Source: an uncultured Candidatus Saccharibacteria bacterium (lineage in GTDB: Bacteria; Patescibacteriota; Saccharimonadia; Saccharimonadales; Saccharimonadaceae). Taken from it: DNA of 64,000 bases. A program made the position numbers and the translations under genes. Shown here piece after piece: positions 9,308 through 37,989 of the stretch; position 1 is the stretch's first letter, and each line of letters begins with the position of its first letter. The stretch lies in contig CAZMQX010000001.1 of the NCBI GenBank assembly GCA_964568745.1, forward strand, positions 13,408 through 77,407, read 5' to 3'. Under the pieces are notes generated by a model. That model was given only the letters and a program-made list of their open reading frames with translations. It was not told where the DNA came from and searched no databases.

Positions 9308-10524
9308 AGAGATACTTCCTAGGGATGGCAGCAGGATATCGATGGAAAGATATCTTCCGACATACTTTTGCAGTGGGCGGTGAAAAAGATAGGGATTTGC
9401 TTTGTCAATATCTAAACAAACGCTACGGGGGCGAGACGATACTTTGTAAAAACGGGCGCTCGGCACTTGGATTGGCGTTAAAAGCGTATTTCGAGCCTGG
9501 TGACGCCGTGATTGTTAACGGTTTTACGTGCTATGCTGTATTTGAAGCGATAAAAGCGGCTGGGCTTACACCGATATTCGTGGATATATCCCAAGAAGAT
9601 TTGAACTTTGATGTAGTGGCACTCGGCAAGCTCAACACGTCTCATTCGGGGCCGCGTCGCTCGCGCCCGTCGCCACGGGGCTCGCGCGCTAAATCTCGCG
9701 CTGCCGCGCTCCGAAATGCCCCGAACGAGACATTATTGAGCTTGCCGATACGAGGCATCATCGTACAAAATTCCTTAGGGAATCCAGCAGACATCGTCGC
9801 GATCGAGAAGCTCGCAAAGAAATACGATTTAACGATCATCGAGGACATGGCGCATTGCGTTGGAGTAAAATACGCAGATGGACGCGAATGCGGCACTGTG
9901 GGCGTAGCGGCGGCTTTTTCGTTTGGGAAGGACAAGGTGATCGATACGGTCTCTGGTGGAGCTGTAGTATTCAGGGAGCCTGCTAAGCATAAGATTGAAT
10001 TACCTAATTTGAGACCTAGGCCGTCAGACCATTTACGAGCAAGATTCTATCCGCTTTTTGGAGGAATTTGCAGAAGTTTGACCGCTGTACATTTAGGTGG
10101 TCTCTTGATGCGTGGATTAGTAAAGATTCATTGGGTGGAGAAATCCGCCGACAATCGTTTAGATTTTCGACGAGTGATCTCGGGATTTGAAGCAAAACTG
10201 GCTTTGAGGCAGTTTGAAGCGCTTTCTCATAACAAGAAACAGCCAATACGGGAGTTCTGTTTGATCAACAACCGCAATGAAGTGCTAAAAAAGCTGGCCA
10301 AAGCGGGATACTATCTAGATGGGTTGTGGTACAAACAACCTGTTTCGCCGGAACGCTACTATAAAAAAGTACATTTCCCAGAAGAAAAATGCAAGACAGC
10401 GGTATATGTTGCAAAACACATTATTAATTTACCAACAAACTATGGCGAAAAGGCCACTAGAAAAGCAAAGCAGATAATCAAACCATATCTGGTGAAAGGA
10501 GGTAGTGTTGAACAGCCTAGCTAG
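9304..10524 (+). CDS. DegT/DnrJ/EryC1/StrS-family PLP aminotransferase carrying an in-frame palindromic insertion
   Basis: NGRSAL, FTC..V, IIEDMAH, FSFGKDK (PLP lysine), GGA; ~42-aa atypical insert GKLNTS...TLLSLP. Confidence 0.8.
   Translation: MKRYFLGMAAGYRWKDIFRHTFAVGGEKDRDLLCQYLNKRYGGETILCKNGRSALGLALKAYFEPGDAVIVNGFTCYAVFEAIKAAGLTPIFVDISQEDLNFDVVALGKLNTSHSGPRRSRPSPRGSRAKSRAAALRNAPNETLLSLPIRGIIVQNSLGNPADIVAIEKLAKKYDLTIIEDMAHCVGVKYADGRECGTVGVAAAFSFGKDKVIDTVSGGAVVFREPAKHKIELPNLRPRPSDHLRARFYPLFGGICRSLTAVHLGGLLMRGLVKIHWVEKSADNRLDFRRVISGFEAKLALRQFEALSHNKKQPIREFCLINNRNEVLKKLAKAGYYLDGLWYKQPVSPERYYKKVHFPEEKCKTAVYVAKHIINLPTNYGEKATRKAKQIIKPYLVKGGSVEQPS
9623..9748. repeat. Palindromic element E1 (family A), in frame in the DegT gene
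   Basis: 13-bp perfect inverted arms tcggcaagctcaa/ttgagcttgccga, inner gtctc/gagac and ttcggggc/gccccgaa; 73-bp core (9649-9721) identical to 11539-11611. Confidence 0.92.
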
Positions 10525-11512
10525 CGCGGAAGAATGGCAAAAGGTGGTCAAAAAGCACCCGGAAGCTAATTTTTTGCAATCACCTACTTACGGTAAAATG
10601 CATACGATCATCGGAGAAAAAGTCATTTTGGAGGATTTTGATGGGGGAGGTTGGGCGCTGATGATTATACATGATGCTAAACGTGGTAGATATATGGAGA
10701 TTCCGTGCGGGCCATTGCTAGACTGGGGTGACTTGAAGCAAACGAAGAAGATATTTGGCCTAATCCGTGATATTGCTAAAAAAGAGCATTGTGTATTTGT
10801 GAGAGTAAGGCCGCAACTTCCTGCCACTTCTGATAATCTTCAGCTTTTGGCCTCACTGGACCTTAAAAAAGCGCCGATGCACCTTGCGGCAGAGCATACT
10901 GTAATGATTGATCTCACCAAGACAGAAGAGGAACTACTTGCGGCGATGCGCAGACAAACACGCTACGAAGTGAGGCGAGCCGATAAGCTGGGCATTCGCG
11001 TGTCGAGAGACGATTCAAAGGATTGTTTCCGAGAATTTCATTCCATACAGGTTGAAACCGCTAAAAGACAAGGGTTTGTGCCACCAAGCCTAAATACTCT
11101 GTTTGCTGAGCGTGAGGCTTTCTTAGGTTCAGCATGGATTTACAAGGCAACGACCGACATAGATGGTGTACAAAAGCCGATGGCTTATGGGTTAATCATC
11201 GGCGATGGGCTTGAGGCCGACTATTACGAAGCGGCGTCGACAGATCTTAATCGCAAACTGCCCGGAGCGTACGCTTTATTATGGCAGGCGATGCGTGACC
11301 TCAAAAAGGCTGGCTATCAGCGTTTTAATTTGTGGGGGATCGCACCAGCCGGACAGCCAAATCACCGTTACGCCGGAGTGACTACTTTTAAGACTGGTTT
11401 CGGTGGTGAAGTTGTAGAATACGTGCCGGCGCATGACATGGTGATTTCACGGATGCGGTATCTAAAAGATTTAGTGGTAGAAAAAGCCAGGAAGAAACGG
11501 AGGCACCTATGA
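10505..11512 (+). CDS. FemAB/FemX-family peptidoglycan aminoacyltransferase
   Basis: NFLQS, GPLLDW, RVRP, MRRQTRYEVRRA, NLWG, FKTGFGG; GTG start with SD AAGGAGG. Confidence 0.88.
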   Translation: MLNSLASAEEWQKVVKKHPEANFLQSPTYGKMHTIIGEKVILEDFDGGGWALMIIHDAKRGRYMEIPCGPLLDWGDLKQTKKIFGLIRDIAKKEHCVFVRVRPQLPATSDNLQLLASLDLKKAPMHLAAEHTVMIDLTKTEEELLAAMRRQTRYEVRRADKLGIRVSRDDSKDCFREFHSIQVETAKRQGFVPPSLNTLFAEREAFLGSAWIYKATTDIDGVQKPMAYGLIIGDGLEADYYEAASTDLNRKLPGAYALLWQAMRDLKKAGYQRFNLWGIAPAGQPNHRYAGVTTFKTGFGGEVVEYVPAHDMVISRMRYLKDLVVEKARKKRRHL

Positions 11513-12645
11513 GCCAGATGAAAAATTCATTGAATCTCGGGCCGCGTCGCTCGCGCCCGTCGCCACGGGGCTCGCGCGCTAAATCTCGCGCTGCCGCGCT
11601 CCGAAATGCCCTCGATTTCAATGAATCTTTCCATCTTGAGTCTGCTTCCGATCGTGCTTCCTGGGATAGTTTTATCACTTCGCATTCAGAGGCAAATTTC
11701 TTGCAGTCGTGGGATTTTTATGAATTCCACAAGGCGCGGGGCAAGAAGGTTGTACGGCGCATCGTAATGCTTGACAATAAAATTGTCGGAGCTTATGCCG
11801 GAGTGGTAGAAACTGCTAAACGCGGGCGATATATGGCGATTGCCGGCGGGCCTATTCTTGATTGGCGCGACAAAAAACTAGTCAAGTTAATTTTTGATGA
11901 TATCCACGAGGAAGGAAAAAAGGCAGAGTGTGTGTTTGTGCGCATACGGCCACAGCTTGAGTTGTCCGACCAGTCTCTTCGTTTGATGGCAGAACTAAAA
12001 TTGAAGAAAGCACCGATGTATTTGTCGGTGGAATATGCTGGTGTACTAGACCTCAAAAAACCTGAAGAAGAGATCTTGGCCGGAGCATCGCAGGGTTTTC
12101 GTCGCAAGCTCAGAAAAGCCCTGAAAAATGACATAGAGATCACGGCAGATACGTCTGATGTTGCAATAAATGAATTCTGTCGTCTCGAAAAGTTACACGC
12201 TGAACGTCAAAAATATGTGGCTTTTTCCTCAAGTTTCCTGACGAAACAATTTGAGGCCTTTCGTGATGGGAACGAGATATTGATCTACACGGCACGAAAG
12301 GACGGTGAGGTCCTGGCGCAGAATTTCATGATTTTTTATGGACCAGAAGCGAGCTATCATTATGGCGTGTCATCGGAGCTTGGCACAAAATACTCTGCGG
12401 CTCCACTTCTACACATAAAAGCGATGGAGGAAGCCAGAAAACGCGGTTGCATACGCTATAATCTCTGGGGGATCGTGGAGCCAGAAGAGAAATCTCATCG
12501 TTTTTATGGAGTATCCGAGTTTAAACGCTCATTTGGTTGCGAAGAACTGCGCTATACGCCAGCTCACGATATGATCCTAAAACCAACTGCTTATCAACTA
12601 ACCAAAATAGTTGAAACTGCGCGCAAGAAAAAACGCCATGTATAA
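11509..12645 (+). CDS. Second FemAB/FemX-family aminoacyltransferase, N-terminal palindromic insertion
   Basis: NFLQSW, GGPILDW, YNLWG, FKRSFG; ATGA overlap with the upstream paralogue. Confidence 0.88.
   Translation: MSQMKNSLNLGPRRSRPSPRGSRAKSRAAALRNALDFNESFHLESASDRASWDSFITSHSEANFLQSWDFYEFHKARGKKVVRRIVMLDNKIVGAYAGVVETAKRGRYMAIAGGPILDWRDKKLVKLIFDDIHEEGKKAECVFVRIRPQLELSDQSLRLMAELKLKKAPMYLSVEYAGVLDLKKPEEEILAGASQGFRRKLRKALKNDIEITADTSDVAINEFCRLEKLHAERQKYVAFSSSFLTKQFEAFRDGNEILIYTARKDGEVLAQNFMIFYGPEASYHYGVSSELGTKYSAAPLLHIKAMEEARKRGCIRYNLWGIVEPEEKSHRFYGVSEFKRSFGCEELRYTPAHDMILKPTAYQLTKIVETARKKKRHV
11525..11626. repeat. Palindromic element E2 (family A), in frame near the FemAB-2 N-terminus
   Basis: 10-bp perfect arms attcattgaa/ttcaatgaat; core identical to E1. 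Confidence 0.92.
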
Positions 12646-12685
12646 AGATTTGTGATATAATAAGCATAAGTAATAAAGGAAAGAT

Positions 12686-13306
12686 ATGGCAAAAATTAAT
12701 CGTAAATATATTGATAAACACTGGCTGGTATTTATTTTTAGAGGATCACTTGCGGCACTATTTGGGGCGTACGCTTTGTTTGCGGGTATGTCTGAAATGG
12801 GGAACATGATTGCGATTGTAAGCATACTGTTACTGCTTATGGGTATCATTGATGCAGCTTCGGCACTTTACAGCTCTAGCAAAAAACACGGTTGGTTTAA
12901 TGCTGTGCTTGATGCGGCTGTGGATGTAGCCGCCGCTCTCATGCTTTTGTTCTTTGCTCGCGAGGATCTAATGCTATCTATGGTGGTACTTTCGGTCTAT
13001 ACAATCATTTCTGGGATTATTGATATCTTTCATGGATTTCTATCCACGGTTGACCCGACAGATCGCTTTATTCGCGTGTTTGCAGGGTGTTGTGGTTGTG
13101 TAATTGGTATTGTGATATTTAATGCTGGTGATTTTGAAATATCTACATTCGTGAGATTCTTTGGTGCCTACATGCTAATCGTTGGTGCAACGAGTCTAAT
13201 TTATGGTGTGCATAACCGCGCTCAAAACATTGAAGACAAAGTGGCCAGGAGTCAGGCGGCCAAGAGAACTAAGAAGACTAAAAGTACTAGCAAAAAGAAA
13301 AAGTAG
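12686..13306 (+). CDS. DUF308/HdeD-like membrane protein
   Basis: Six hydrophobic segments in two repeats, W..FIFRG start, basic tail. Confidence 0.7.
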   Translation: MAKINRKYIDKHWLVFIFRGSLAALFGAYALFAGMSEMGNMIAIVSILLLLMGIIDAASALYSSSKKHGWFNAVLDAAVDVAAALMLLFFAREDLMLSMVVLSVYTIISGIIDIFHGFLSTVDPTDRFIRVFAGCCGCVIGIVIFNAGDFEISTFVRFFGAYMLIVGATSLIYGVHNRAQNIEDKVARSQAAKRTKKTKSTSKKKK

Positions 13307-13361
13307 ATTTTGACTGCTCGGACCTGTTCGCTTTCTATCTTTTTGTGATATAATTTAGGTT

Positions 13362-14225
13362 ATGAAAGCAATTATCACTGATGCTGGTTTTGCCAGTCGC
13401 TATTTACCTATCACTAAAACAATTCCCAAGGCTATGATACCGATTGGTAGTAAGCCCGTAATGCAACTGTGCGTAGAAGAATGCGCTGAGGCGGGGATTG
13501 ATGAGATTATCATCGTTGCTACGCCAAATACAAAGGGCAAAGAAATCTACGACGATTATTTTCACAATCCGTCAGACAACGTCAAAGCGCTCCTAGAAAA
13601 GCAGGGCAAAATGGAGAGGTTTGAGCCGGTCGAGAAAATCATGCAATTCCCAAAGATCACCGTGATCGAGCAAGACGCAAGTTTGCCTTATGGTAATGGT
13701 TCGCCGATCGTTTCAGCACGCAAGTTCGTCGAAAACGATAAGGCTTTTGTCGTATTATATAGTGACGATTTAATCTTAGGCGCAAGCGATGTAAAAACCT
13801 TGATTGACAAATACAACGAAAACCCTGAGGCTAAGGCCGTGATCGCAACCCAAGAGATGCCTGAAGACACTTGGCATAAATACGGAATGGTAGCCTTAAA
13901 AGAAAATGGGACGCTCAGCCATATCGTAGAAAAACCCAAAACTCCAGATCAGAGCCCAAGTAACCTAACGAGTTACGGTCGCTATTTGTTGACACCCGAA
14001 GTATTTGACTACTTAGTGCCCGCTAATACAGGATTAGATGGGGAATTGTGGACTGTTGATGCGATCACTAAGCTCGCCGAACATGGTGATGTTGTCGTGG
14101 CGCATAGCCAAGGTAAATGGATCACTACTGGCGATCCAAAAAATTATTTCTTGGCACATCTAGAGTTTGTCATGCGCCAGACAGATTACGCCGATGATGT
14201 GCGAAAATTTGTAGAAGGTGTATAA
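13362..14225 (+). CDS. galU: UTP--glucose-1-phosphate uridylyltransferase-like
   Basis: AGFASRYLPITKTIPKAMIP, PYGNG, VEKP, YGRYLLTP, TGD. Confidence 0.75.
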   Translation: MKAIITDAGFASRYLPITKTIPKAMIPIGSKPVMQLCVEECAEAGIDEIIIVATPNTKGKEIYDDYFHNPSDNVKALLEKQGKMERFEPVEKIMQFPKITVIEQDASLPYGNGSPIVSARKFVENDKAFVVLYSDDLILGASDVKTLIDKYNENPEAKAVIATQEMPEDTWHKYGMVALKENGTLSHIVEKPKTPDQSPSNLTSYGRYLLTPEVFDYLVPANTGLDGELWTVDAITKLAEHGDVVVAHSQGKWITTGDPKNYFLAHLEFVMRQTDYADDVRKFVEGV

Positions 14226-14251
14226 TATAATTATAAATAGGAGGTAAAAAA

Positions 14252-14554
14252 ATGAATGTAGCGGAATGGATTATAGTAGCGATATTAAGCACAACACTGC
14301 TTTTGCTTTTGATTCTAGCGATTATTCTACTAGTTAAACTGATTAATCTCAGTAAAGAAGTTGAAAAAGTGGTGGTAGAGGGCCAGGATATTGCACGAAA
14401 TGCCAACGGCATCGTGTCTAATGTAAAGGGTATGACCTCATTTGGGGGGACGATCGAGATGTTTATCGACCGCTACATCACTCCTAAGCTCAAAGAAAAA
14501 ATCAAAGAATCCAAGGCTAAAGAAGCAAAAACTAAAGAAAGGAGCGAAAAATGA
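14252..14554 (+). CDS. Single-TM protein (DUF948/YoxC-like)
   Basis: N-terminal TM followed by a coiled segment; directly upstream of a YtxH-like gene. Confidence 0.55.
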   Translation: MNVAEWIIVAILSTTLLLLLILAIILLVKLINLSKEVEKVVVEGQDIARNANGIVSNVKGMTSFGGTIEMFIDRYITPKLKEKIKESKAKEAKTKERSEK

Positions 14555-14886
14555 CAGCCAAAAATAAAAGTGGAGCTGGTAAGTTCTTTCTCGGCGCGGC
14601 TCTGGGCGCATTGGTGGGAGCGGTCGCAAGTAAATTTATGAAGTCCAGTGCTGAAGACGAGGATTTTGAAGATCGACTTGAAGACGTAGAAGAAGATATC
14701 GCAGATTTCAAAGAAGATGCAGCGGAACGGTTGACAAGCGCAAAAGGCGCGGCCGAGAAAAAGGTGGAGGCAGCCAAGAAAAAGGCAGAGAAAGTTAGCA
14801 AAACTGCAGCAACGGAAGCGAAGAAGGTCGGTAAAGATATTGAAAAGGGTGCTGAGAAAGTAAAGAAGACCATCAAGAATGCCTAA
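14551..14886 (+). CDS. YtxH-like protein
   Basis: KFFLGAALGALVGA then a charged helical K/E/A-rich tail. Confidence 0.7.
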   Translation: MTAKNKSGAGKFFLGAALGALVGAVASKFMKSSAEDEDFEDRLEDVEEDIADFKEDAAERLTSAKGAAEKKVEAAKKKAEKVSKTAATEAKKVGKDIEKGAEKVKKTIKNA

Positions 14887-17800
14887 GGCTGTCAAATTAA
14901 AGCCAAGTGATTTTGTCCATCTGCATAACCACACGCATTATTCGCTTTTGGATGGTTTAACTAAGGTGCCAGAACTTGTACAATTCGTCAAGTCTGACGG
15001 AATGGAAGCTGTGGCTGTGACAGATCATGGCACGATGTCAGGGCTCGTTGAGTTATATAAGGAATGTAACGCTAATGGCATAAAACCTCTACTCGGTCTA
15101 GAAGCCTATGTCGCAGCGCGCAAGCTAACCGACAAAGATCCAGCGCATGACAAGCAACGCTTCCATGTGACTTTGATTGCCATGAATAATAAGGGCTACG
15201 AAAACCTCTGTCGAATTATGAGCAATGCCGAGGAGCATGGCAAATATTATAAGCCCCGTACTGATCATGATGAACTCAAAAAATATAACGAGGGAATTAT
15301 CTGCCTTTCTGGCTGTATGGGGTCAGAAATATCAGAGGCGATCCGAGCTGATGATGATGAGCGAGCACTGGAGCTAATCGATTGGTACAGAAACGTATTT
15401 AAGGATAGATTCTATCTTGAAATGCAAGATCATGGACACCCCAAATCCAGTACGCACTCTGCCGAGCAGAAGAAGGTCAATGATTGGCACATGGCACACG
15501 CTGAAGAACTTGGATTGCCTCTAGTCGTAACCTGTGATGCACACTATCTAAAAAAAGACGACCAAGACGCACACGAAGTGTTGCTCTGTATCGGCACGGC
15601 GGCAAACCTATCCGACACTAATCGTATGACGCTAAAGGATTTTGATCTACATGTGATACCGGCCGAGGAGATTATTGAACATTGGCAAGATACTTGTCCA
15701 GAAGCGGTTCTGAATACCAAAAGAATTGCTGACAGGTGCAATGTGGACCTAGAGCTCGGTCGGATTTTGATCCCGAAATTCCCCGTACCAGATGGAGAAG
15801 ACGAGAAAACGTATCTGGATAAGCTAGTGTTTCAGGGTTTGGTTTATCGATATGGCGGCAAAAAACTTGAAGATACCGCAAAAATAAGCATTAAGGAGTG
15901 TCGCAAGATATTGGCTGATGTGGATAAGGACCGCGACGACGACCACAAGGTTTTACCGCGTATTGATTACGAATTGTCAGTCGTAGATAAAATGGGCTAT
16001 AACGGCTATTTCTTGATCGTGCAAGATTTTATCAACTGGGGCAAATCTCAAAGGATCGTGTATGGGCCAGGGCGAGGTAGCGCGGCTGGTTCGATATTGG
16101 CTTATGCCCTTCGCATCACAGAGCTAGATCCGTTGAAATACGACTTGCTATTTGAGCGGTTCTTGAATCCGGATCGCATCTCGATGCCAGATATTGATAC
16201 CGATATCCAAGACACAAGACGAGACGAAGTAATCCAATACTGTTCTGACAAATATGGCTCCGCACGTGTTTCCAACATCGCGACTTTTGGTAAAATGATG
16301 GCCAAAAACGCTGTGCGTGACGTAGCGCGTGTCCTTGAAGTGCCATACGCAGAGGCAGATCGACTCGCCAAAATGGTACCCGATCCGGTACAGGGCCATC
16401 ACGTACATCTTGCTGATGCGATCCGAGAAGTCCCAGATCTTAAAAATGAATATGAAACAAACCCAACCTCAAAAGAAGTGATCGACTTTGCCTCAAGATT
16501 AGAAGGGACAATTCGTAATCACGGCGTGCACGCTTGTGGTGTAATCATCGCTCCAGATGATCTAGTAAAATTCCTACCGCTTGAAGTCTCGGCGAAAGGC
16601 CCAATCGCAGCCCAGTTCCCAATGGGTCAGGTAGAAGAACTTGGTCTACTCAAAATGGATTTTCTCGGACTCTCTAATTTATCCGTAATCAATAATGCTC
16701 TTAGAATGATCCGAAAAGTTTACCATGACGACATAGATCTATCGGCCTTACCACTCGACGATTCGGAAACATACGCGCTTTTGCAACGTGCAGAAACTAC
16801 TGGTGTATTCCAGCTAGAGTCTGCCGGTATGAAACGATATTTGCGCGACCTCAAGGCTTCAACTTTTGAAGATATCATCGCTATGGTAGCGCTTTATCGT
16901 CCGGGGCCGATGCAATTTATCGACTCGTTCATTAAACGAAAGCACGGCGAAGAGCCGATCACATATCTTCACCCTGGTCTTGAAGGAGCGCTAAAGAATA
17001 CTTATGGTATTTTGATTTATCAAGAGCAATTCATGCAGATCTCAAGGACTTGGTGCGGTTTTACGGGCGGGCAGGCAGACACTCTCAGAAAAGCTGTTGG
17101 CAAGAAGAAGGTCGACCTGATGAACAAAGTAAAACCCGACTTTATTAAGGGCGCTGTAGAGATTGGCGGGGCCACCAAAGAGATCGCTGAGACATTTTGG
17201 GATCAGCTTCTGGAATTTGCGAACTACTGTTTCAATAAATCACATGCCGCTTGTTACGCTCTGATCGCCTATTGGACGGCGTATCTCAAGGCTCATTATC
17301 CAGACGCTTTTATGGCTGCGCTGATGACGGCCGACATGCGATGGACCGATCGACTCGCGATTGAAATCGCCGAATGTAAGCGTATGGGGCTCAAAGTTCT
17401 AGGTCCAGACATCAATCAATCGTATGGCGACTTTGGCATTGTTGGTGGCGAAAAGACGATCCGATTTGGCTTGTCTGGGATCAAAAATATGGGCAAATCT
17501 TTGGTGGAAGACATCGTGATCCCAGAGCGCGACAAAAACGGTCCATTCAAATCAGTTTGTGATTTCGCTAAACGCATCGATTCTACTAAATTCAACAAAA
17601 AATCTTGGGAAGCCGCGATCAAAACTGGCGCATTCGATAGATTTGGTGCAACGCGGTCAGATCTCTTGTTCAATCTAGAGGCGGTGCAAGCCTATGGATC
17701 AAAAATTCAAAAAGACGTAGGGTCAGGTCAGACCGACCTTTTCGGCATGATGGGTGAAGCTGGTGCCGTACCGGAAGTTGAGATCAAGCCAGCACCGGTA

Positions 17801-18604: not shown

Positions 18605-18630
18605 TTATATCTATATGGTATAATTAGGGT

Positions 18631-19047
18631 ATGAAAAAGAAGAGAGTGTCTAGTAGTGTGACGGTCAATCGTAAAGCGCGGTTTGATTACGTGCTTGGCG
18701 ATGAGCTGACGGTAGGTATGGCACTTGCAGGGCCGGAAGTGCGTCTGATCCGCGATCATCATGTCCAGCTGAAAGGCTCTTATGTAACTATCCGAAATGG
18801 AGAATTATGGTTATATGGACTCACGCTCGGTGCAGATACTGCGAGAAACATCAAACTACTTGCCACAAAAAAACAAATTGCTACTCTTGAGCGAGAAAAA
18901 AAGGACGGATCGACCATTGTGCCAGTGCGTTTAAATGGCGGGCAGAGATACATTAAGCTCGTGATTGCGATAGGTAAGGGTAAGAAGAAATATGATAAGC
19001 GCGAAGCCATCAAAAAACGCGACATTGAAAGAGGTAGATATGCTTAA
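18631..19047 (+). CDS. smpB: SsrA-binding protein (compact, 138 aa)
   Basis: NRKARFDY, G.EV, KLL, GKGKKKYDKRE. Confidence 0.9.
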   Translation: MKKKRVSSSVTVNRKARFDYVLGDELTVGMALAGPEVRLIRDHHVQLKGSYVTIRNGELWLYGLTLGADTARNIKLLATKKQIATLEREKKDGSTIVPVRLNGGQRYIKLVIAIGKGKKKYDKREAIKKRDIERGRYA

Positions 19048-19855
19048 AATTTTTTCCTGGAATGTTAATGGTTTGCGCGCGGTAATTCGTAAAGGGGCCT
19101 TACAAAAATTCATCCAGGAATATCAGCCGGATATTTTGTGCCTGCAAGAGATTAAGGCGAAACCAGAGCAAGTGGAGTATGATTTTCCGGGATACAAGGT
19201 ATTTTGGAATCCAGCAGAGCGAGCTGGCTATAGCGGGACGGCTACATTAGTTAGGGAAGAATTATTATCATTGCTTTCCTCAGCTGACTTGTTCGCCAAA
19301 AATCAAGATAATTATGCTTCGGAAAGCAACGATAATAATTCTTTCAACATAGCTGTTGACGAAGGCAGGATTCTTACGCTTGACTTTGAAAAGTTTTATT
19401 TAGTAAATGTTTATGTGCCGAATTCGAAGCCGGATCTAGCGAGATTGAAATTGCGTGAGGCAGAGTGGGATCCGGAGCTGCTGCGGTACTTAAAAGAGCT
19501 AAAAAAGACCAAGCCGGTGGTGGTGTGTGGGGATTTTAATGCAGCGCATAATGAGATCGATATTGCGAGACCGAAGACCAATCATCATTCGGCGGGGTTT
19601 ACCGATGAAGAGAGAAAGGGAATCACAAATTACATTAAGGCTGGATTAGTCGATACCTTTCGCTATTTGCATCCAGGATCGGTCCATTATACCTGGTGGA
19701 GTCACTGGGGCCAAGCGCGAGCAAACAATATCGGCTGGCGGATCGATTATTTCTTTGTGTCTGAATCTCTTAAAAGTAAGCTAGTCTCAGCGGAAATTTA
19801 CGAAAACGTGATGGGATCGGATCACTGCCCGATTTCGATCGAGCTGGAGATCTAA
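19040..19855 (+). CDS. xth: Exodeoxyribonuclease III / AP endonuclease with an in-frame hairpin insertion
   Basis: SWNVNGLRA, LQEIK, GYSGTA, EGR, YVPNS, CGDFN, WRIDYF, SDHCP; start at ATG 19040. Confidence 0.93.
   Translation: MLKIFSWNVNGLRAVIRKGALQKFIQEYQPDILCLQEIKAKPEQVEYDFPGYKVFWNPAERAGYSGTATLVREELLSLLSSADLFAKNQDNYASESNDNNSFNIAVDEGRILTLDFEKFYLVNVYVPNSKPDLARLKLREAEWDPELLRYLKELKKTKPVVVCGDFNAAHNEIDIARPKTNHHSAGFTDEERKGITNYIKAGLVDTFRYLHPGSVHYTWWSHWGQARANNIGWRIDYFFVSESLKSKLVSAEIYENVMGSDHCPISIELEI
19255..19345. repeat. Palindromic element E3 (family B), in frame in xth
   Basis: 13-bp arm aagaattattatc/gataataattctt plus 9-bp ttgctttcc/ggaaagcaa separated by one mismatch; shares TCAGCTG(G)ACTTG and TTATGCTTC(A/G)GAAA with the priA element. 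Confidence 0.85.
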
Positions 19856-23605: not shown

Positions 23606-24953
23606 AAAATATATCGCGATTGATTTAAAGTCATTTTATGCTTCGGTAGAGTGCGTGGAGCGTGGGCTGGATCCTCTGGAGGCTCGGTTAGTGGTAGCCG
23701 ACGTTTCACGCACCGAAAAAACAATTTGTCTTGCTGTGTCGCCCGCCTTGAAAGCCCTAGGCATTTCAGGACGAGCGCGACTTTTTGAGGTGTACCAAAA
23801 GGCAAGGGATTTTATTATCGCACCGCCTCGTATGCAAAAATATATTGAGGTGAGCCAGCGAATTTTTAGGATCTATGCTTCTTTTGTCGCGACAGAAGAC
23901 ATTCATGTTTATTCTATTGACGAAGTATTTATTGATGCGACTTCATATCTTAAAAATTACAAAATGACCGCACGTGAACTTGCGATGACAATGATCAAAA
24001 AAGTACTTGCCGAAACCGGAATTACAGCCACAGCCGGCATAGGCTCAAATCTGTATCTCGCCAAAATTGCGATGGATATTGAAGCGAAGCGCATGCGACC
24101 AGATGAGGACGGCGTAAGAATCGCTGAACTAGACGAAAAATCTTATCGAAGGAAATTGTGGGCGCATCAACCTTTGACAGATTTTTGGCGAGTGGGTGCC
24201 GGCTATGCCAGGAGACTAAAAAAGTACGGGATTAGTACGATGGGGGACTTAGCGCGCTTTTCGCTTGCTGGTTCGGATAAGCTGTATCACGAATTTGGCG
24301 TCAATGCAGAACTTCTGATCGACCACGCTTGGGGGTATGAGCCCACGACCATGACAGACATCAAGGCATATCGGTCAGAAAACCACAGTTTGTCGAGCGG
24401 GCAAGTACTATCTCAGCCCTATAGTTCCAGTCGAGCAAGAATAGTGATCGCAGAGATGGCGGACGAACTGGCCCTAAAGCTCGTCCGCGACGAGCTGATG
24501 ACCGATCAGATTGCGCTAACACTCGGACACGACAAGACTAACCTCAAAAATTATCACGGTAAAGTGGTGTCAGACCACTATGGTCGCATGGTCCCAGCTC
24601 ACGCTCACGGGACGATCAACTTGCCTAGTTTTACTTCTGCGTCCAATCAAATCACGACAAAGACTTTGGAATTGTTTGATAAAATCGTAGATCCGGATCT
24701 TTTGATACGCCGAATGTACATTGTGGCAAACCATGTTAGACCAGCTTCCCTAAAAAAGCAAGCGCAGCAATTAAATATATTTACTGATTACGAAAAACTG
24801 GCAGAAGATATTGCCCGCGAGAAGCGTCGTGCCAAGGCCATCCTCAAGATCAAAGATCGCTATGGCAAGAATGCGATTTTGAAAGGAGTTAATTTTGAGG
24901 AAGGCGCAACCCAAATCAAACGTAACCGACAAATTGGGGGACATCAAGCATGA
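23568..24953 (+). CDS. Y-family error-prone DNA polymerase (UmuC/ImpB/MucB/SamB type)
   Basis: YIAIDLKSFYASVEC, YSIDEVFID, TATAGIG.NLYLAKIAMD, DFWRVG; start overlaps the metK 3' end. Confidence 0.9.
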   Translation: MDIMAKDSTGTARKYIAIDLKSFYASVECVERGLDPLEARLVVADVSRTEKTICLAVSPALKALGISGRARLFEVYQKARDFIIAPPRMQKYIEVSQRIFRIYASFVATEDIHVYSIDEVFIDATSYLKNYKMTARELAMTMIKKVLAETGITATAGIGSNLYLAKIAMDIEAKRMRPDEDGVRIAELDEKSYRRKLWAHQPLTDFWRVGAGYARRLKKYGISTMGDLARFSLAGSDKLYHEFGVNAELLIDHAWGYEPTTMTDIKAYRSENHSLSSGQVLSQPYSSSRARIVIAEMADELALKLVRDELMTDQIALTLGHDKTNLKNYHGKVVSDHYGRMVPAHAHGTINLPSFTSASNQITTKTLELFDKIVDPDLLIRRMYIVANHVRPASLKKQAQQLNIFTDYEKLAEDIAREKRRAKAILKIKDRYGKNAILKGVNFEEGATQIKRNRQIGGHQA

Positions 24954-25144
24954 AATTTGAGAATAGTGACTATAATGACATCATCGATCTGCCGCATTTT
25001 CATGATCCGGCAAGACCATACATGTCCCGAAAAAAGCGTGCCGCGCAGTTCGCGCCATTCAAATCACTTGGTGGCTATCACGAATCAATTGATGACGTAG
25101 CTGATGAGGTTAACGACGTGGTTTGGGAGGATATTGAACGATGA
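24950..25144 (+). CDS. YolD-like partner of the Y-family polymerase (short)
   Basis: YNDIIDLPH...MS...RAAQFAPF, typical of proteins following Firmicutes-type umuC; ATGA overlap. Confidence 0.7.
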   Translation: MKFENSDYNDIIDLPHFHDPARPYMSRKKRAAQFAPFKSLGGYHESIDDVADEVNDVVWEDIER

Positions 25145-28977: not shown

Positions 28978-29010
28978 TAGTCCGCCATTATTCCAATGAA
29001 GCTTGAAGCG

Positions 29011-30450: not shown

Positions 30451-30476
30451 AGATTTATTATAACATTGGTGAAGCA

Positions 30477-30502
30477 TAAAAAAAAGCCCCCAGATGGGGG
30501 GC
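30477..30502 (-). terminator. Intrinsic terminator
   Basis: gccccc-agatg-gggggc with an A-tract on its left (U-tract on the minus strand). Confidence 0.7.
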
Positions 30503-30505
30503 AGT

Positions 30506-31495: not shown

Positions 31496-31608
31496 GATTC
31501 CATTATACACAACCGTTTTGTTTTTTGCAATGTTTTTTTGTTTTTTCGGCAAAAAATGTGGAAAAAAGTTATGTTTTTTAGTATAATTAGATAAAAGTGG
31601 AGTTAACA

Positions 31609-32874
31609 ATGCAAAAAGATCACGTCAAAAAAACTATTACCCAAGAAGAGCTTGCACAGGCCTTTACTGGTGAGGTGGCTATGCCAGCCGAGAAGACCAA
31701 GAAAAAATCCAAGATCTCCGAGCGTACGTTGGCTATTTTTCTCATCGTCGGTGTGGTTCTGCTGACAGCAGGATGCGCGATGCTAGCATTTGGCATTTTG
31801 AATCTTGGCGAATCCGCGAGCGATGTCGAATACCCCGATCTCAAAGCCGAAAAGGACGCGCAAAAATATTACAGCCCTTTGACTGGCCAATCCATAGAGA
31901 CGGAGTCTGACGTTACTGCGCCGATCTATTGCATACAGACTCCAAACGGCACCGATGGAGCAAGGCCACAAGCAGGACTAAATCAAGCTGGTGTGATATT
32001 TGAGGCAATTGCCGAAGCCGGCATCACCCGTTTTGCGGCAATCTATCAAAATCCGACTTCATCAGTGATTGGCCCGATTCGTTCACTCCGTATTTATTAT
32101 CTTGAATGGGATACTCCGTTTGACTGCACCATTGTGCATGCGGGTGGTTCGGGAGATGCGCTAGCGGCGGTATCAGACGGTGGGTACAAGGACCTGACTG
32201 AAGATTATACCTACATGTACCGCGGGACTAGCGGTAGTAGATTATGGAATAATCTATTCACGACTGCCAGCAATCTAAAACGTTTTAGCTCTGATCGGGG
32301 GTATGATAAGTCTGAAGCCAAGGGCTTTGCACGAATGACACCAGATGAATCGCAGAAGGCACGAGTAGACGAGCAGGTGAGCGAGAAACTAGTCATCACT
32401 AAGCCCGCCAAAGGGAATACATCGGAGCTAAAACCTACAGTAACTACGATCGGTCTAAGATTTGGCGGGTTGCCTAATTATAATGTAGACTATGCTTATG
32501 ACGCTAATTCTAACACCTACCATAGAAGTTATCAGAGTGGGGTAGCGCACGAAGTCTATAATTGTCCGCCCGATGATCTCGGCGAGAAAAACCCTGAGAG
32601 TGTCTGCTCACTAGTGCAAATGGCGCCTACGGTAGTGGTAGCAATGGTTGTTTCAGAACACCGTGCTTCGGATAACTATCACGAAGATATCACCGCTATC
32701 GGTTCGGGTGATGCCTACATCTTTCAAAATGGTGGAGTGAAGCAGGGCACTTGGAAGAAGGCTTCCCGCGAGGCGCAAATTGAGTTTGTTAACACGAACG
32801 GGGAATCAATAAAATTAGCGCCTGGGCAGACAATTATTTCCGCGGTGCCAACCTATGGTAGTGTTGACTTTTAG
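31609..32874 (+). CDS. DUF3048-domain membrane-anchored protein
   Basis: One TM, SPLTG, ARPQAGLNQA..IFE..AE.GITRF, GPIRS.R, HAGGS. Confidence 0.85.
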   Translation: MQKDHVKKTITQEELAQAFTGEVAMPAEKTKKKSKISERTLAIFLIVGVVLLTAGCAMLAFGILNLGESASDVEYPDLKAEKDAQKYYSPLTGQSIETESDVTAPIYCIQTPNGTDGARPQAGLNQAGVIFEAIAEAGITRFAAIYQNPTSSVIGPIRSLRIYYLEWDTPFDCTIVHAGGSGDALAAVSDGGYKDLTEDYTYMYRGTSGSRLWNNLFTTASNLKRFSSDRGYDKSEAKGFARMTPDESQKARVDEQVSEKLVITKPAKGNTSELKPTVTTIGLRFGGLPNYNVDYAYDANSNTYHRSYQSGVAHEVYNCPPDDLGEKNPESVCSLVQMAPTVVVAMVVSEHRASDNYHEDITAIGSGDAYIFQNGGVKQGTWKKASREAQIEFVNTNGESIKLAPGQTIISAVPTYGSVDF

Positions 32875-32952
32875 GGTCGGTGTGCTATAATGAAAAAGTG
32901 CACCTAACCCCCCTTGGGTGCACACTTGGTATAAGGGGTATTGTTACAATGT

Positions 32953-33028
32953 GGCCTCGTCGTCTAGTGGTTAGGACGTCTGGTTCTCATCCAGAAAATC
33001 GCGGGTTCGACTCCCGCCGAGGTCACCA
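32953..33028 (+). tRNA. tRNA-Glu (CTC)
   Basis: GGCCTCG acceptor, anticodon stem tctgg-TT CTC AT-ccaga, GGTTCGACTCC, encoded CCA. Confidence 0.97.
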
Positions 33029-33112
33029 ATAAAAAAGGCGCCTATGCCTTATTTTTATTGGTGACGAGAAGGGAGAAACGAAGTTACTCCCGCCGAGGTC
33101 ACCAATAAAAAA
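33010..33112. repeat. Direct / inverted / direct copies of the tRNA-Glu 3' end
   Basis: 27-bp direct repeat actcccgccgaggtcaccaataaaaaa (33010-36 and 33086-112); 14-bp inverted arm gtcaccaataaaaa/tttttattggtgac between them. Confidence 0.85.
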
Positions 33113-33136
33113 AGAGGGCGCTTGCGGGGGGCGAAT

Positions 33137-34081
33137 TTAAAGCACCAAAGTAAAAGTTGTCTTTGCCCTATCGCTTTTACAATTTATGTTCCACCCATTC
33201 TGGTCACAAAGTGCTTTAGCAATGGCGAGTCCGAGTCCCGAGCCGTCTTTCGTCTTATCACTTTGATAAAATCGATCAAAAACTTTTTCTTGATCTTTAC
33301 TGGAGATTGTGGCACCATCATTTGCGACCATTATTTTGTTTCTTTCCAATGTCACTGTTATCTTTTTGTTCCCATACTTCGTGGCGTTATCCAGTAGTAT
33401 ATCTAGGACCTGCAGAATGTCTTGTTTTGGCAAAAACAAGGGCTTTGAGCCGTCGTTGTACTCAAATAAGATATCACCAGAAAATTTTGGTTTGAACATT
33501 TCGATGCGTTTTTTCAACTCGGCTTTTAGGTCCACTTCTTTAGATACACTTTTCTTTATGTTGCCGGCATCCATTTTTGCAAGCTGTAAAAGGTCTAGGA
33601 CCAATTTATTCGCATGATCGATCTCGTCTTCAATATTGGACTTCCATTTTCTATTTTCTTCATCCACATCTAAAGCTTCGACATTTGCCCCAATAACCGC
33701 GAGCGGTGTTTTGAGCTCGTGCGAGGCGTTGGCGATGAATAACTTCTGTTTGTCATAAGAATCTTTTACTGGCGCAATAATTTTTTGTGACGCAAAATAA
33801 GTGATCAGAAAAGTAGCCACTTCGATAACAGCCCCAACACAAAGCAAAGTGGCAAAAAGACGCGCGCTGCCATCTTCGCGATCGTCCTGGATGTAAGCTC
33901 TTAATTCCTGTTCATCGTAAGGCATAGGGGTCGGCATGCTGAGGTCCGGTTCGGAAAATGGCTTTGGCTCTGGGCGCGTCATCGACGAGAAAATCATAAT
34001 CAAAGTACCGGATAAAACAAGAATAATGGTAGTGACAACCATGGTGATGATGATTATGCGGTTTCTTAACTTCTTAAACAT
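33137..34081 (-). CDS. Sensor histidine kinase (CiaH-like)
   Basis: Two TMs, FIANASHELKTPL H-box, LLDNATKY, FDRFY, GSGLGLAIA. Confidence 0.93.
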   Translation of the reverse strand: MFKKLRNRIIIITMVVTTIILVLSGTLIMIFSSMTRPEPKPFSEPDLSMPTPMPYDEQELRAYIQDDREDGSARLFATLLCVGAVIEVATFLITYFASQKIIAPVKDSYDKQKLFIANASHELKTPLAVIGANVEALDVDEENRKWKSNIEDEIDHANKLVLDLLQLAKMDAGNIKKSVSKEVDLKAELKKRIEMFKPKFSGDILFEYNDGSKPLFLPKQDILQVLDILLDNATKYGNKKITVTLERNKIMVANDGATISSKDQEKVFDRFYQSDKTKDGSGLGLAIAKALCDQNGWNINCKSDRAKTTFTLVL

Positions 34082-34741
34082 TTATTTATCCGTTAGTTTA
34101 TATCCAAGGCCCCGAACAGTGATAATTCTTGCTTTGCTATGGATTTTCTTTAATAGTTTGCGGATTCTAGAGATGTAAGATTCTACATAATTATCCTCGC
34201 CGAGACCCATTTCTCCCCAAACTTTGGCGAGCAAATGCTCTTTGCTAATTAACACTTCTGGTGATTTTATAAATTCAGTGACAATTTCTGCTTCCTTTGC
34301 AGTGAGCTGCTCCCCATTTAGAGTCGCGTTTGTTTTATTTAGCACCAAATCGCCGTACGTGATATCTGAAACGTCAATATTTTTTGGACGGCGAACCACG
34401 GCTTTAATTCTTGCCACAAGTTCTGCGGTCTTAAATGGCTTAGCGAGATAATCATCGGCACCGTGATCTAAGTGGCTGATTTTGCTCTCCACCTCAGATA
34501 ATGCCGAAAGCATGATGACGGGTGTTTGGATTTTTTTCTCGCGCATACGTTTCAAAATATCCGTACCAGAAAACTTCGGTAGCATAATATCTAAAACAAC
34601 GCAGTCGTAAATATCGCTCATGGCGTTTTCTAGGCCATCTTCACCATTATCCACGAGGTCGACCGAGATGCCTTGTTTTTCTAGGTTGTATTTTACGGCT
34701 TCAGCCAAGAAAGTCGCGTCTTCTACATAGAGTACTCGCAT
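34082..34741 (-). CDS. OmpR-family response regulator
   Basis: VED, VLDIMLP, GADDYLAKPF, winged-helix TVRGLGY. Confidence 0.95.
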   Translation of the reverse strand: MRVLYVEDATFLAEAVKYNLEKQGISVDLVDNGEDGLENAMSDIYDCVVLDIMLPKFSGTDILKRMREKKIQTPVIMLSALSEVESKISHLDHGADDYLAKPFKTAELVARIKAVVRRPKNIDVSDITYGDLVLNKTNATLNGEQLTAKEAEIVTEFIKSPEVLISKEHLLAKVWGEMGLGEDNYVESYISRIRKLLKKIHSKARIITVRGLGYKLTDK

Positions 34742-34782
34742 AATTATTCTCCTTATTTAATTATAATATAATTCTGCGCTTT

Positions 34783-34836
34783 CAAGCTAAAACCAAGCTG
34801 AAAATACCTTCCGGTATATTTTAAGATTTTTTTCAG
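34783..34836. promoter_or_regulatory. Putative response-regulator boxes in the divergent promoter
   Basis: TTTAAG-5nt-TTTCAG (34820-36) and caagct repeated at 11-bp spacing (34783, 34794), similar to the streptococcal CiaR TTTAAG-N5-TTTAAG box. Confidence 0.45.
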
Positions 34837-34886
34837 GTAAATCGGTGATAATGGTGTTGTATAATAATTAAAAAGGAGGATTTCCC

Positions 34887-35162
34887 ATGGAAAACGATAA
34901 GATCAAAAACAAGGACATTGCGAAAGAAAAAATTATTCTTTTCGTAATTGGTGTGCTGGTTGGTGCTGTTATTTCAACTGCGGCATTCTTTGTCTATGCC
35001 AAGACTTTGGGGGCTGACAGCAGCGCCAATAGTTCATCATCACAACAAATGCCCGGTGGCACTCCGCCAGAAAAACCAAGTGGCAATAACTCCGGAAATG
35101 ACCAAGATGGCACTCCGCCGGAAAAGCCAAGCGACGATAATGACTCAAAAAGCGATAGTTAA
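34887..35162 (+). CDS. Small membrane-anchored protein with duplicated GTPPEKPS
   Basis: SD AAGGAGG, one TM, 23-bp imperfect direct repeat at 35058-80 and 35109-31. Confidence 0.75.
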   Translation: MENDKIKNKDIAKEKIILFVIGVLVGAVISTAAFFVYAKTLGADSSANSSSSQQMPGGTPPEKPSGNNSGNDQDGTPPEKPSDDNDSKSDS

Positions 35163-35175
35163 AGGGGGGGTCATA

Positions 35176-36522
35176 GTGAATAAGAAGGACAAAATAGCGT
35201 ATGCCGCTATAATCACCACCCTGACGGCGACCTTAGCAATGCTGTGGCTGTTGACTATCAATACAATAAACTCCGTCTATGAGGGTTCTAATGACAAAGG
35301 CGTGTCGCAGGTGCCGGGTGGTGGATCTTCATCTGTAGACTATTCATCGATCAAAGAGATTACTTCCGATGAGGTTGTCACGAGCGGCGAGTTTTCTTCG
35401 GCTAGTGCCGATGAGAACGTTATCCTTGCGTCTGGGGACATCACGGCGACTTTGTCGGGCATCACGGTCACTAAGACTGGCGATTCGGATGGTGGCGATA
35501 ATACTAGTTTTTATGGTACTAACTCAGCAATCATCGCTAAGGACGGCGCGAATCTAACTATCAAGAATGCCCGCATCACAACTAATGCTACCGGTGCCAA
35601 CGGAGTGTTTTCTTATGGCGGTTCGGCAACCACGAATAATTCGTCTTCAGACGACACTACGGTGAATATATCTGATTCGGTCATCACCACCAACAAAGAT
35701 AACTCCGGAGGTATCATGACTACCGGTGGCGGCATTATGAACGCGGATAATCTCACCGTCACTACGAGTGGTACTTCGAGCGCGGCAATTCGTTCGGACC
35801 GTGGCGGGGGGACGGTTACGGTAAATGGTGGAACTTACAAAACTACCGGCAAGGGTTCTCCGGCTATCTATTCTACGGCGGACATTACTGTAAAAAATGC
35901 CACGCTCACCGCAACGGCTTCTGAGGGGGCGATTATCGAGGGCAAAAACAGTATCACGCTTGAAAACGTTGATCTCACAGACACAAATAACGAACTGAAC
36001 GGACAGTCGACAACTTATAAGAATATATTTCTGTATCAATCGATGTCTGGCGACGCGGCTTCGGGTGAGGCGGTTTTTACGGCCAAGAACTCTACGATCA
36101 CCACCAATAAGGGAGACAACTTCTATGTTACCAACACCACAGCTACGATCAACTTGGAGAACAACAAAATCATCAATAACGACTCGGCTGGCAATTTTCT
36201 TAGAATTCAAGCTGATTCGTGGGGTAATTCTGGCAGCAATGGTGGTACCGTCACATTGAATCTAACCAATCAATCTGCCACCGGAAAAATTGTGGTAGAC
36301 TCAATTTCTACATTGACGATGAATCTTAAAACTGGGGCTTCATTCAAAGGCGTGATTAATAACGAAAATGCTGGCGAAGTATTTCTATCCTTGGATAGTT
36401 CTAGCACCATTACCCTAACCGGTGACACATATATAAAATCACTCACCAATGCAGACGCGAGCAATAGCAATATTCACACGAATGGCTACAAGCTATATGT
36501 GGATGGCGTATTGCTAAAGTGA
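35176..36522 (+). CDS. Secreted Ser/Thr/Gly/Asn-rich beta-helix-like protein
   Basis: GTG 35176 after a G-rich SD; TM/signal, repetitive ITT.G..S.AI turns. Confidence 0.7.
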   Translation: MNKKDKIAYAAIITTLTATLAMLWLLTINTINSVYEGSNDKGVSQVPGGGSSSVDYSSIKEITSDEVVTSGEFSSASADENVILASGDITATLSGITVTKTGDSDGGDNTSFYGTNSAIIAKDGANLTIKNARITTNATGANGVFSYGGSATTNNSSSDDTTVNISDSVITTNKDNSGGIMTTGGGIMNADNLTVTTSGTSSAAIRSDRGGGTVTVNGGTYKTTGKGSPAIYSTADITVKNATLTATASEGAIIEGKNSITLENVDLTDTNNELNGQSTTYKNIFLYQSMSGDAASGEAVFTAKNSTITTNKGDNFYVTNTTATINLENNKIINNDSAGNFLRIQADSWGNSGSNGGTVTLNLTNQSATGKIVVDSISTLTMNLKTGASFKGVINNENAGEVFLSLDSSSTITLTGDTYIKSLTNADASNSNIHTNGYKLYVDGVLLK

Positions 36523-36597
36523 TGAGGGGGCAAATTATAACATTGAACCCGAATCGTTGATTTTACGAGAGGTAATCTTTATGGTATAATATTTATT

Positions 36598-37989
36598 ATG
36601 AAGAGATTGCCTATCGTAGCGTTGATTGGTCAGACGAATGCTGGAAAATCGAGCATCCTGAATCGTTTGGCGCGCAAAAATATCGCCATTGTAGCACGCG
36701 AGGAGGGAACTACGCGCGATAATGTTGTGGCAACGATAGATGATAGTTTTATTTTGATAGATACTGCTGGTCTGAAAGACCCGTCTGATGATTTTGAGGC
36801 ATCGATCCAAGAACAGATCAGTGACGCGATCGATGCGGCCGATGTAATATTGGTCACATTGGATTCGTCGAAATATTTTGATCATCGTGACGCAAAAATT
36901 GCCAAGGATGCGCTCCGTTCTAAAAAGCCGGTTTTGCTCGTTTTGAATAAGTGCGACTTAGGCGAGTCATTGCCGATAGAAGAATTTCGCGCCCTCGGTA
37001 TTGCGCCAGAGAACACTTTTTATATTTCGGCGACGACTGGACAGGGTATTGACAGCCTGAAAAGGCAATTGGAATATGGTTTTTCTCGGGACGGCGTCGC
37101 TCCATCCCGTCGTCACGGGCGGAGCGCGCCTTCATCCTCGGTCGTAACCTCCGGACACCCTCAAAAAACATATTCCCAATTGCCTTTTTGTCAAACTCCC
37201 CTGAAAATCGCTCTGATCGGGCGGCCGAATGTCGGGAAGTCGTCGCTTTTTAATGCTCTGGGGAAGAAACAGCAGGCGATCGTGAGTTCAAAACAGGGAA
37301 CCACGCGCGATGTAAATCGTGTATCCGTGAAGTACAAGGGACGAGAGCTTGAGATTTTAGACACGGCGGGCCTGAGAAAGCCAGGGAAGCGCGAAGTGGG
37401 GATCGAAAAGTTCTCAGCGATTCGTACTTTAGCGGCGATTGAGGAGGCGGATATTTGTTGTCTTCTCGTCGATGCTACCGAGCCGCACGCTAAGCTCGAC
37501 CAAACTCTCGCTGGACAGATCGTTGAAGCCGGTAAAGGTATAATCATGGTGGTGACCAAAGTAGACTTACTGAAGTCGTCAGCTGAGGATTCGAATACAC
37601 TTCTTGATGACCTTGAGCGAGATTTTGACTTTTTGCCGTTTGCGCCGGTGGTATTGACTAGCTCTGAGACAGGGGAGAATGTCACAAGATTATTTGAACT
37701 AGCACTCCAGATAGACGAATCAAGACACCAAGAGGTCAAAACTTCAGAACTCAATAAGATCCTCGGCGATGCGATGGTGAGCCACCCGCCGGCTGGCCTC
37801 AAAAATACAAGACCAAAACCAAAATACATCGTGCAAACTGATACTTGCCCACCGTGGTTTGTGGTACATGGTCACGACCTAGGGTTGCTACATTGGTCGT
37901 GGAAGCGATTTTTGGAGCGCAAAATCCGTGAAAAATACCCGTTTATTGGTACTCCGATCATGTTTTCTTTTCGAAACGACCAAAAATAA
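36598..37989 (+). CDS. der: Ribosome biogenesis GTPase Der (EngA) with an in-frame palindromic insertion in the GD1-GD2 linker
   Basis: Two G-domains (GQTNAGKS, DTAG, NKCD; GRPNVGKS, DTAG, TKVD) and KH-like C-terminus. Confidence 0.96.
   Translation: MKRLPIVALIGQTNAGKSSILNRLARKNIAIVAREEGTTRDNVVATIDDSFILIDTAGLKDPSDDFEASIQEQISDAIDAADVILVTLDSSKYFDHRDAKIAKDALRSKKPVLLVLNKCDLGESLPIEEFRALGIAPENTFYISATTGQGIDSLKRQLEYGFSRDGVAPSRRHGRSAPSSSVVTSGHPQKTYSQLPFCQTPLKIALIGRPNVGKSSLFNALGKKQQAIVSSKQGTTRDVNRVSVKYKGRELEILDTAGLRKPGKREVGIEKFSAIRTLAAIEEADICCLLVDATEPHAKLDQTLAGQIVEAGKGIIMVVTKVDLLKSSAEDSNTLLDDLERDFDFLPFAPVVLTSSETGENVTRLFELALQIDESRHQEVKTSELNKILGDAMVSHPPAGLKNTRPKPKYIVQTDTCPPWFVVHGHDLGLLHWSWKRFLERKIREKYPFIGTPIMFSFRNDQK
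37060..37188. repeat. Palindromic element E4 (diverged family A), in frame in der
   Basis: 13-bp perfect arms aaaaggcaattgg/ccaattgcctttt; 79-nt core 37084-37162 shares blocks tctcggg, gcgtcgctc, cccgtcg, cacggg, gcgcgc, ctccg, ccctc with 11535-11613. Confidence 0.88.

Follow-up and report, generated by a model that had tools for sequence, protein, structure and literature searches.

Four hairpins inside protein-coding genes

The stretch of DNA analysed here (the window) comprises 64,000 nucleotides (nt) of an uncultured Candidatus Saccharibacteria bacterium (contig CAZMQX010000001.1 of assembly GCA_964568745.1) and carries, on its forward strand (+) and within protein-coding genes, four sequences that can fold back into hairpins, here called E1, E2, xth, and E4. 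E1 (9623 to 9748) lies in the open reading frame (ORF) 9304 to 10524, which encodes a DegT-family aminotransferase, and is translated through as a stretch of 42 amino acids (aa); its outer arms occupy 9623 to 9635 and 9736 to 9748, and its 73-nt core occupies 9649 to 9721. E2 (11516 to 11636) is found at the N terminus of a FemAB-family gene (ORF 11509 to 12645), with perfect arms of 10 base pairs (bp) at 11525 to 11534 and 11617 to 11626 and a core at 11539 to 11611, which is identical, base for base, to that of E1 at a distance of 1.9 kb. This identity fits a transfer of the core, two fresh insertions not being required. E4 (37060 to 37188, arms at 37060 to 37072 and 37176 to 37188) lies in der/engA (open frame at about 36547 to 37986), within the linker that joins its two GTPase domains. 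The hairpin in the exonuclease III gene xth (19257 to 19343, with 13-bp arms at 19257 to 19269 and 19331 to 19343) has an AT-rich stem of about 24 bp, no GC-rich core, and an additional outer stem in which TA(T) codons pair with IAV codons.

An earlier reading of these letters, made without database searches (the sequence-only reading), had described a homologous core in E1, E2, and E4, closed at each site by perfect inverted arms. Both observations hold, since the four arm pairs are exact, each arm occurring exactly twice, once per strand, and E4 is a diverged member of the same family (nhmmer E = 3e-07). For each of the three 13-mer arms, 0 of 100 shuffles contained two matches; the 10-mer of E2 was matched twice in 4 of 100 and is therefore weak when taken alone. 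The outer spans of E1, E2, xth, and E4 (126, 102, 87, and 129 nt) are all divisible by three, as had been remarked, but this is true of only 16 of the 34 full copies described below.

A repeat family with a shared core and private stems

We compared the genome to which the window belongs (G000; 643 kb in 28 contigs, 44% GC, 93.75% complete) site by site with that of a relative, G010, which was fetched whole. Judging from the source names of close protein homologues, G000 belongs among gut or rumen Saccharibacteria, and one relative among these homologues bears the name Candidatus Nanosyncoccus alces; the closest relatives found share about 78% DNA identity. An iterated nhmmer profile (family A) counted about 23 copies of the element in G000, and G010 holds at least 20, with about half of the sites shared between the two genomes. 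Every complete copy (about 40) lies within a long ORF, in frame and free of stop codons in the host frame, several frames are represented, and copies run both with and against the gene. The codon register of the paired bases (counts of 14, 12, and 8) shows no preference.

The anatomy of the hairpins was determined by aligning each left arm to the reverse complement of its own right arm in the 34 full copies of G000 and G010 together. The common core, about 65 nt long, is GC-rich and forms multiple hairpins, the helices of which show compensatory differences between subfamilies. Adjoining the core is a conserved 2 × 2 TC/TC internal loop or a paired TTCG/CGAA variant, followed outward by a private stem, usually a single extra base about 17 to 25 nt from the core base, and a perfect outer run, mostly of 6 to 16 bp. 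Single-base bulges are located on the element's right arm in 35 of 50 cases, and 21 of those 35 are a C. Bulges included, the full arms measure 22 to 46 nt per side and are therefore longer than the exact segments initially named.

Private closing stems are real and general: outward of the shared core base, the stem of each of the 34 full copies is more complementary than any of 100 shuffles of its right flank. The earlier claim that arms are unrelated between sites is nearly correct, as they are private in all but 4 to 5 of 561 copy pairs. These exceptions, which lie in different genes, are a trio in G010, E4 together with G010 C4:24793 (where similar arms stand in another gene and another reading frame), and G000 C6:24923 together with G010 C2:66667; because such arms are common to copies in different genes, stems can travel with the element. 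A census of 10-mer inverted repeats returned 151 clusters against 119 in mirror-repeat controls, a seed too noisy for counting remnants.

Filled and empty sites

Fourteen filled sites have an empty orthologue in the other of the two genomes, and for these the net gain of the gene was compared with the length of the hairpin, whole or minus one arm. Some sites have one host-like arm; others have two foreign arms. At 6 of the 14 (E1, C19, C2:38473, E4, LeuRS, and G010 C6:15109), the gene gains approximately the hairpin minus one arm: E4 adds 96 nt net for a hairpin of 129 nt, which is 2 nt off this value, and E1 adds 78 nt over the G010 orthologue for a hairpin of 126 nt, which is 18 nt below it. 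The N-side arm of E1 reads LGKLN and is host-like, and at C2:38473 the host residues ADII reach within 6 nt of the core, so that the whole left arm is host sequence. At some sites it is the left arm of the element that is native; at G010 C2:66667 it is the right one. At the remaining 8 sites (E2, TsaD, TruB, LigA, ValRS, G010 C3:122356, G010 C3:67402, and G010 C6:18013), the gene gains the whole hairpin (−7 to +20 nt), both arms thus being extra; E2, where flank identity is low, adds 114 nt net for a hairpin of 121 nt.

According to the sequence-only reading, the right arm is a copy of the target made during insertion, and exactly one arm should be ancestral at the empty site. LeuRS, E1, E4, and xth agree with a copied target, and 6 of the 14 sites agree with one ancestral arm. 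At the other 8, E2 and TsaD included, both arms are absent from the empty allele, an outcome that the reading had itself listed as contradicting it, since the arms would then belong to the element.

At the TsaD site, about 24 of 30 genus alleles read at the DNA level are empty, with a fixed spacing of 13 aa, and most of the 79 matching genomes were matched in two pieces, as is typical where the site is empty. G000, G085, and G024 are filled at the same codon with different cores and with arms (17 to 27 bp) which are all foreign and different. No flank sequence has been copied in any of these three fills, and the TsaD arms have no match in their own neighbourhood. When all arms were searched with BLAST against G000 and G010, only chance-level matches were obtained, known siblings aside. 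The der linker is empty (14 aa) in G010 and G011, is filled with other arms and cores in G090 and G042, and holds a decayed copy in G067.

The xth gene of G000 is only 10 aa longer than its G010 orthologue, for a hairpin spanning 87 nt, and its N-side arm aligns with orthologue residues; here, as for LGKLN in E1, the suggestion that left arms encode native residues is borne out. In G011, the loop allele is the shortest of four seen (99 nt), yet it contains a stem of about 17 bp between TAILFS and ENSIAV codons, with no core. Reverse-complement copying of host codons therefore takes place in this lineage in the absence of a core too.

Stems renewed after insertion

About 19 of 79 genus genomes are filled at the LeuRS site, and the others are empty. 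Empty alleles have 7 to 8 aa between EI[ED]F and I[TKR]VF, and filled alleles keep about that number outside the insert. The N-side arm spans the conserved EIEF codons, which no empty allele lacks, and in every filled allele examined the C-side arm is the reverse complement of the N-side codons, as seen in the paired peptides FKL/SLN, FPV/TGN, FAV/IAN, and FLL/SKN. At LeuRS, G000, L113, and L114 share one insertion and its private inner stem. Their flanks are about 76 to 78% identical, and the cores of G000 and L113 are identical at 84 of 84 positions. Among the three, the outer stem shows at least 3 compensatory double changes (3 to 6 pairs), and each of these (at least 3) pairs joins two third-codon positions, the changes being synonymous. 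Matched double changes at synonymous sites have renewed the pairing since insertion: the copy arm tracks the native arm while the core is unchanged, which means that pairing was kept up after the insertion itself.

Two further observations were made around LeuRS. In G000, an RNA-parameter fold of L083 (C4, about 24,860 to 25,050) pairs NWIGRS codons with TTRPDT codons outside the element, a pairing that is mostly G-T and may be due to chance. In L113 (16066 to 16809) and L114 (16004 to 16702), an RNase III gene is located about 4 kb downstream of leuS, and long perfect stems in mRNA would be potential substrates of this enzyme.

Cores turn over within persisting stems

Arms without a core are found in the DegT allele P0010, in the LeuRS alleles P0142 and P0143, and in TsaD of G042; P0010 has exactly 90 nt fewer than P0004, and what is left there forms a hairpin of 12 bp with a loop of 4 nt. 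For 32 of 34 cores, the nearest core relative resides in the same genome. At four orthologous sites, the cores are only 61 to 70% alike, against 84 to 98% for cores at other sites of the same genome, and across many lineages different subfamilies fill the same sites. Since cores cluster by genome and not by site, they turn over inside persisting stems. The stems are long-lived features of their sites, and the cores are replaced or homogenised within them. Judging from peptides alone, a LeuRS core of the same subfamily appears to be reversed in P0140 and in P0169 to P0172, as spacer inversion would give. The notion that copying is confined to the moment of insertion is contradicted by these results, since arms co-vary afterwards, persist without a core, and hold their place while cores change.

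GC skew, gene strand, and candidate enzymes

The orientation of the element matches the sign of the local GC skew in 36 of 43 copies, and within each G000 contig all copies are on one strand. Relative to the host gene, 18 copies have the same orientation and 19 the opposite one. Read in the mRNA sense, stem mismatches comprise 9 G-U, 21 A-C, and 26 others, with no excess of G-U wobble, and an Rfam scan of the E1–E2 region gave chance-level matches only. Orientation with GC skew, occurrence on both gene strands, the lack of a G-U excess, and the in-frame state of all copies favour a replication-linked DNA process and disfavour an RNA stem selected for splicing or processing.

A Y1 HUH transposase (PF01797) had no match in G000, which is 93.75% complete, while control genomes were matched. 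G000 encodes two reverse transcriptases with the RVT_1 domain, at C3:1100-2257 (L065) and C28:919-2244 (L066), both of which score below the cut-off of every NCBIfam class, and one of which follows a gene with a helix-turn-helix domain. They may be diversity-generating or defence retroelements. No hairpin copy lies beside either gene, and neither the reverse transcriptases nor the absence of Y1 could be tied to the elements.

Origin and maintenance of the stems

We consider it somewhat probable that the hairpins are fold-back elements and that template-switch mutation extends and repairs their stems, not only at insertion but also beyond it. On this explanation, housekeeping genes of a Saccharibacteria genus from gut or rumen would harbour, in frame, a family of fold-back repeats, and each copy would consist of three layers: the conserved core, an inner stem brought by the insert, and an outer stem which, at many sites, would be host flank on one side and its own reverse complement on the other. 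The strong core hairpin may nucleate template switching during replication (quasipalindrome correction), in which the nascent strand would briefly copy the opposite arm, so that the palindrome is extended and repaired outward. Extension would halt where the host protein no longer tolerates change, and cores would move or be homogenised between existing hairpin sites within the genome. Such a halt to extension would explain why the TsaD fills, located between conserved residues, lack a host-derived outer stem.

Template switching is documented to make and maintain hairpin stems, to produce reverse-complement copies and repair in single events, to homogenise and expand the arms of inverted repeats, and to invert spacers, coding DNA included (PMC8794818, PMC8604942, PMC13100816, PMC7202029). 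One of its hallmarks, an arm that is the reverse complement of adjacent older sequence, is found at LeuRS, at xth (G011 and G000), and at C2:38473, and is not found at 8 of 14 sites; another, matched changes in both arms, is found at LeuRS (G000, L113, and L114). Among the processes considered, template switching, which the sequence-only reading had already named, fits best.

Several points weigh against this explanation. No single template-switch event was caught between near-identical genomes, and the compensatory evidence at LeuRS amounts to 3 to 6 pairs only, a co-variation that selection for a DNA hairpin could also yield. The bulge, mostly on the right arm and at a roughly constant distance, looks like a polar, element-linked step that the model does not foresee. 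The private arms of 8 of the 14 sites are foreign and have no traceable source, and simple local template switching fails there. Moreover, gene lengths cannot separate the addition of a copy arm from the overwriting of host residues: length arithmetic on LeuRS, DegT, der, and C2:38473 placed the predictions of both models within about 2 aa of each other, as the two parts of the stem, inner and outer, have similar lengths and loop size itself varies by about 2 aa. Template switching leaves unexplained the origin of the foreign arms, the right-arm bulge, the entry of the core, and its strong conservation.

A bolder form of the same idea, which we regard as possible but rather doubtful, is that the cores are transposase-free cassettes which spread by template switching between hairpin "landing pads". 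The landing pads would be self-extending palindromes that draw in codons of essential genes, replacing or adding to them; the element would keep writing new peptide into host proteins, and the replication fork would set its orientation. If so, this mode of mobility would be defined by DNA structure, and not by particular end sequences or an enzyme devoted to it.

The alternatives differ in when the arms arose and in what has kept them paired. The integration reaction itself might copy the target flank in inverted form, through snap-back or self-primed synthesis starting at the palindromic base of the element, in one step and with fixed polarity. The gain of about the core plus one arm at 6 of 14 sites, the host origin of the whole left arm at C2:38473, and the right-arm bulge, which at its roughly constant distance resembles a mechanistic scar, are all as such a reaction would leave them; in addition, the genome encodes the two unclassified reverse transcriptases, and enzymes of this kind make snap-back products. 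We nevertheless deem it unlikely, given that both arms are extra at 8 of 14 sites, that three independent TsaD fills copy no flank, though an added copy would leave the conserved flanks there intact, and that the native arm is not always on the same side. A one-step reaction is also at odds with arms that change in step after insertion, outlast their cores, and have their cores swapped inside them. The extra arms at 8 of 14 sites speak instead for arms that belong to old elements, the stems of which diverged under selection for a DNA hairpin serving mobility or a genomic function, with any host resemblance due to chance and the cores kept by purifying selection or gene conversion. Arms common to copies in different genes and genomes would then be expected, the sharing of about half of the sites by G000 and G010 implies that many insertions are old, and a core identical at 84 of 84 positions between flanks of 76% identity points to constraint. 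But the LeuRS stem includes EIEF codons that every empty allele has and that are consequently host sequence, the G011 xth stem stands in the shortest loop allele seen, and 6 sites gain one arm less than the hairpin, and we rate this account as still less probable.

Least credible to us is selection at the RNA level, in which the stem would close an mRNA structure for splicing, processing, or regulation of translation; splicing or processing was the option which the sequence-only reading had kept open as its alternative. The rich compensatory co-variation of the core helices between subfamilies, the high stability of the stems, and the RNase III gene near LeuRS in relatives would all suit such a role. 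Precise removal from mRNA, however, would not demand that about 40 copies be in frame and free of stops; orientation is split 18 to 19 relative to transcription, yet follows GC skew; A-C mismatches outnumber G-U ones by 21 to 9; and no Rfam family is matched.

Relation to known systems

The closest parallel in features is offered by the Rickettsia palindromic elements RPE-1 to RPE-10, reportedly described by Ogata et al. in 2000 and 2002. Like the elements studied here, they are short palindromic repeats lying in frame in housekeeping genes of a reduced genome, translated as extra surface loops, and lacking a transposase gene of their own. RPE copies share their whole sequence, ends included, whereas the Saccharibacteria copies share only the core of about 65 nt; their closing stem is private to the site and consists partly of host codons, and cores turn over within it. 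The hosts also differ, being Rickettsia in the one case and a Saccharibacteria lineage of the candidate phyla radiation (CPR) in the other.

The second parallel is template-switch mutation as known from the Ripley model, the assays of the Lovett laboratory, and genomic studies (Monttinen and Loytynoja 2022; Abraham and Hazkani-Covo 2021), with which the elements share reverse-complement copying, homogenisation and expansion of arms, multi-base compensatory changes, occurrence in coding DNA, a link to replication, and perhaps spacer inversion. The events known so far occur singly and sporadically at short inverted repeats, while here the process appears to be systematic and nucleated by a repeated mobile core at 20 to 40 sites per genome, with stems of 20 to 45 bp within essential genes. 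The REP/REPIN-RAYT system and the IS200/IS605-derived PATEs are likewise short hairpin repeats with a single-stranded DNA biology and replication-dependent orientation. Those repeats lie outside genes, carry a tagged tetranucleotide on conserved stems, and depend on a Y1 HUH transposase, unlike the present copies, which are intragenic, have private stems, and reside in a genome (G000) where no Y1_Tnp gene was found. Miniature inverted-repeat transposable elements (MITEs) such as the Correia elements are also small, non-autonomous, multi-copy, and capable of forming hairpins, but all their copies end in the same terminal inverted repeats and are bordered by short direct duplications of the target. 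Both features are missing here: each site has ends of its own, and the flanking repeats are inverted, not direct, as the sequence-only reading had stressed.

We found no paper describing these Saccharibacteria elements. Newly added here are the 8-to-6 split of sites by arm origin, the synonymous co-variation after insertion, the alleles with arms only, the turnover of cores, the core-less hairpin of xth, and the link to template switching. If the template-switch explanation is true, a selfish hairpin repeat would do more than insert a loop into essential proteins: its stem would grow into surrounding codons and force stretches of protein to be encoded by mutual reverse complements, and a sporadic mutational process would become tied to a repeated genomic element. 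The genus would then offer a natural system for palindrome growth, selection-free compensatory evolution, and protein innovation at dozens of sites per genome, with a bearing on how mobile DNA may persist without a transposase in the very small genomes of CPR bacteria.

Further candidate elements

Hairpins other than those detected by the family A profile were observed within the window. At 61604 to 61705 (+), a priA-like ORF of 720 aa contains an in-frame, GC-rich hairpin with arms of about 20 bp; since the profile missed it, the repeat family of G000 exceeds the 23 copies counted. The xth and priA elements were considered as one family, which was rejected because BLAST found no similarity between them, and no second copy of the xth hairpin was found in G000 or G010. 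At 53298 to 53379 (−), an ftsI-like ORF of 645 aa has a nested, GC-rich hairpin of three stems in frame, with a span of 82 nt, not divisible by three, which the profile also left undetected. Two contig ends of G000, C27:5-44 and C14:15646-15693, appear to be the two halves of one copy of the element, and given such ends, hairpins may break assemblies. Among DegT homologues (P0001 to P0089, alignment columns about 135 to 200), many metagenomic relatives have inserts in the same surface loop that differ in subfamily and orientation and are apparently independent; in P0089 the insert in this loop is much longer, and P0052 carries one more insert at another site.

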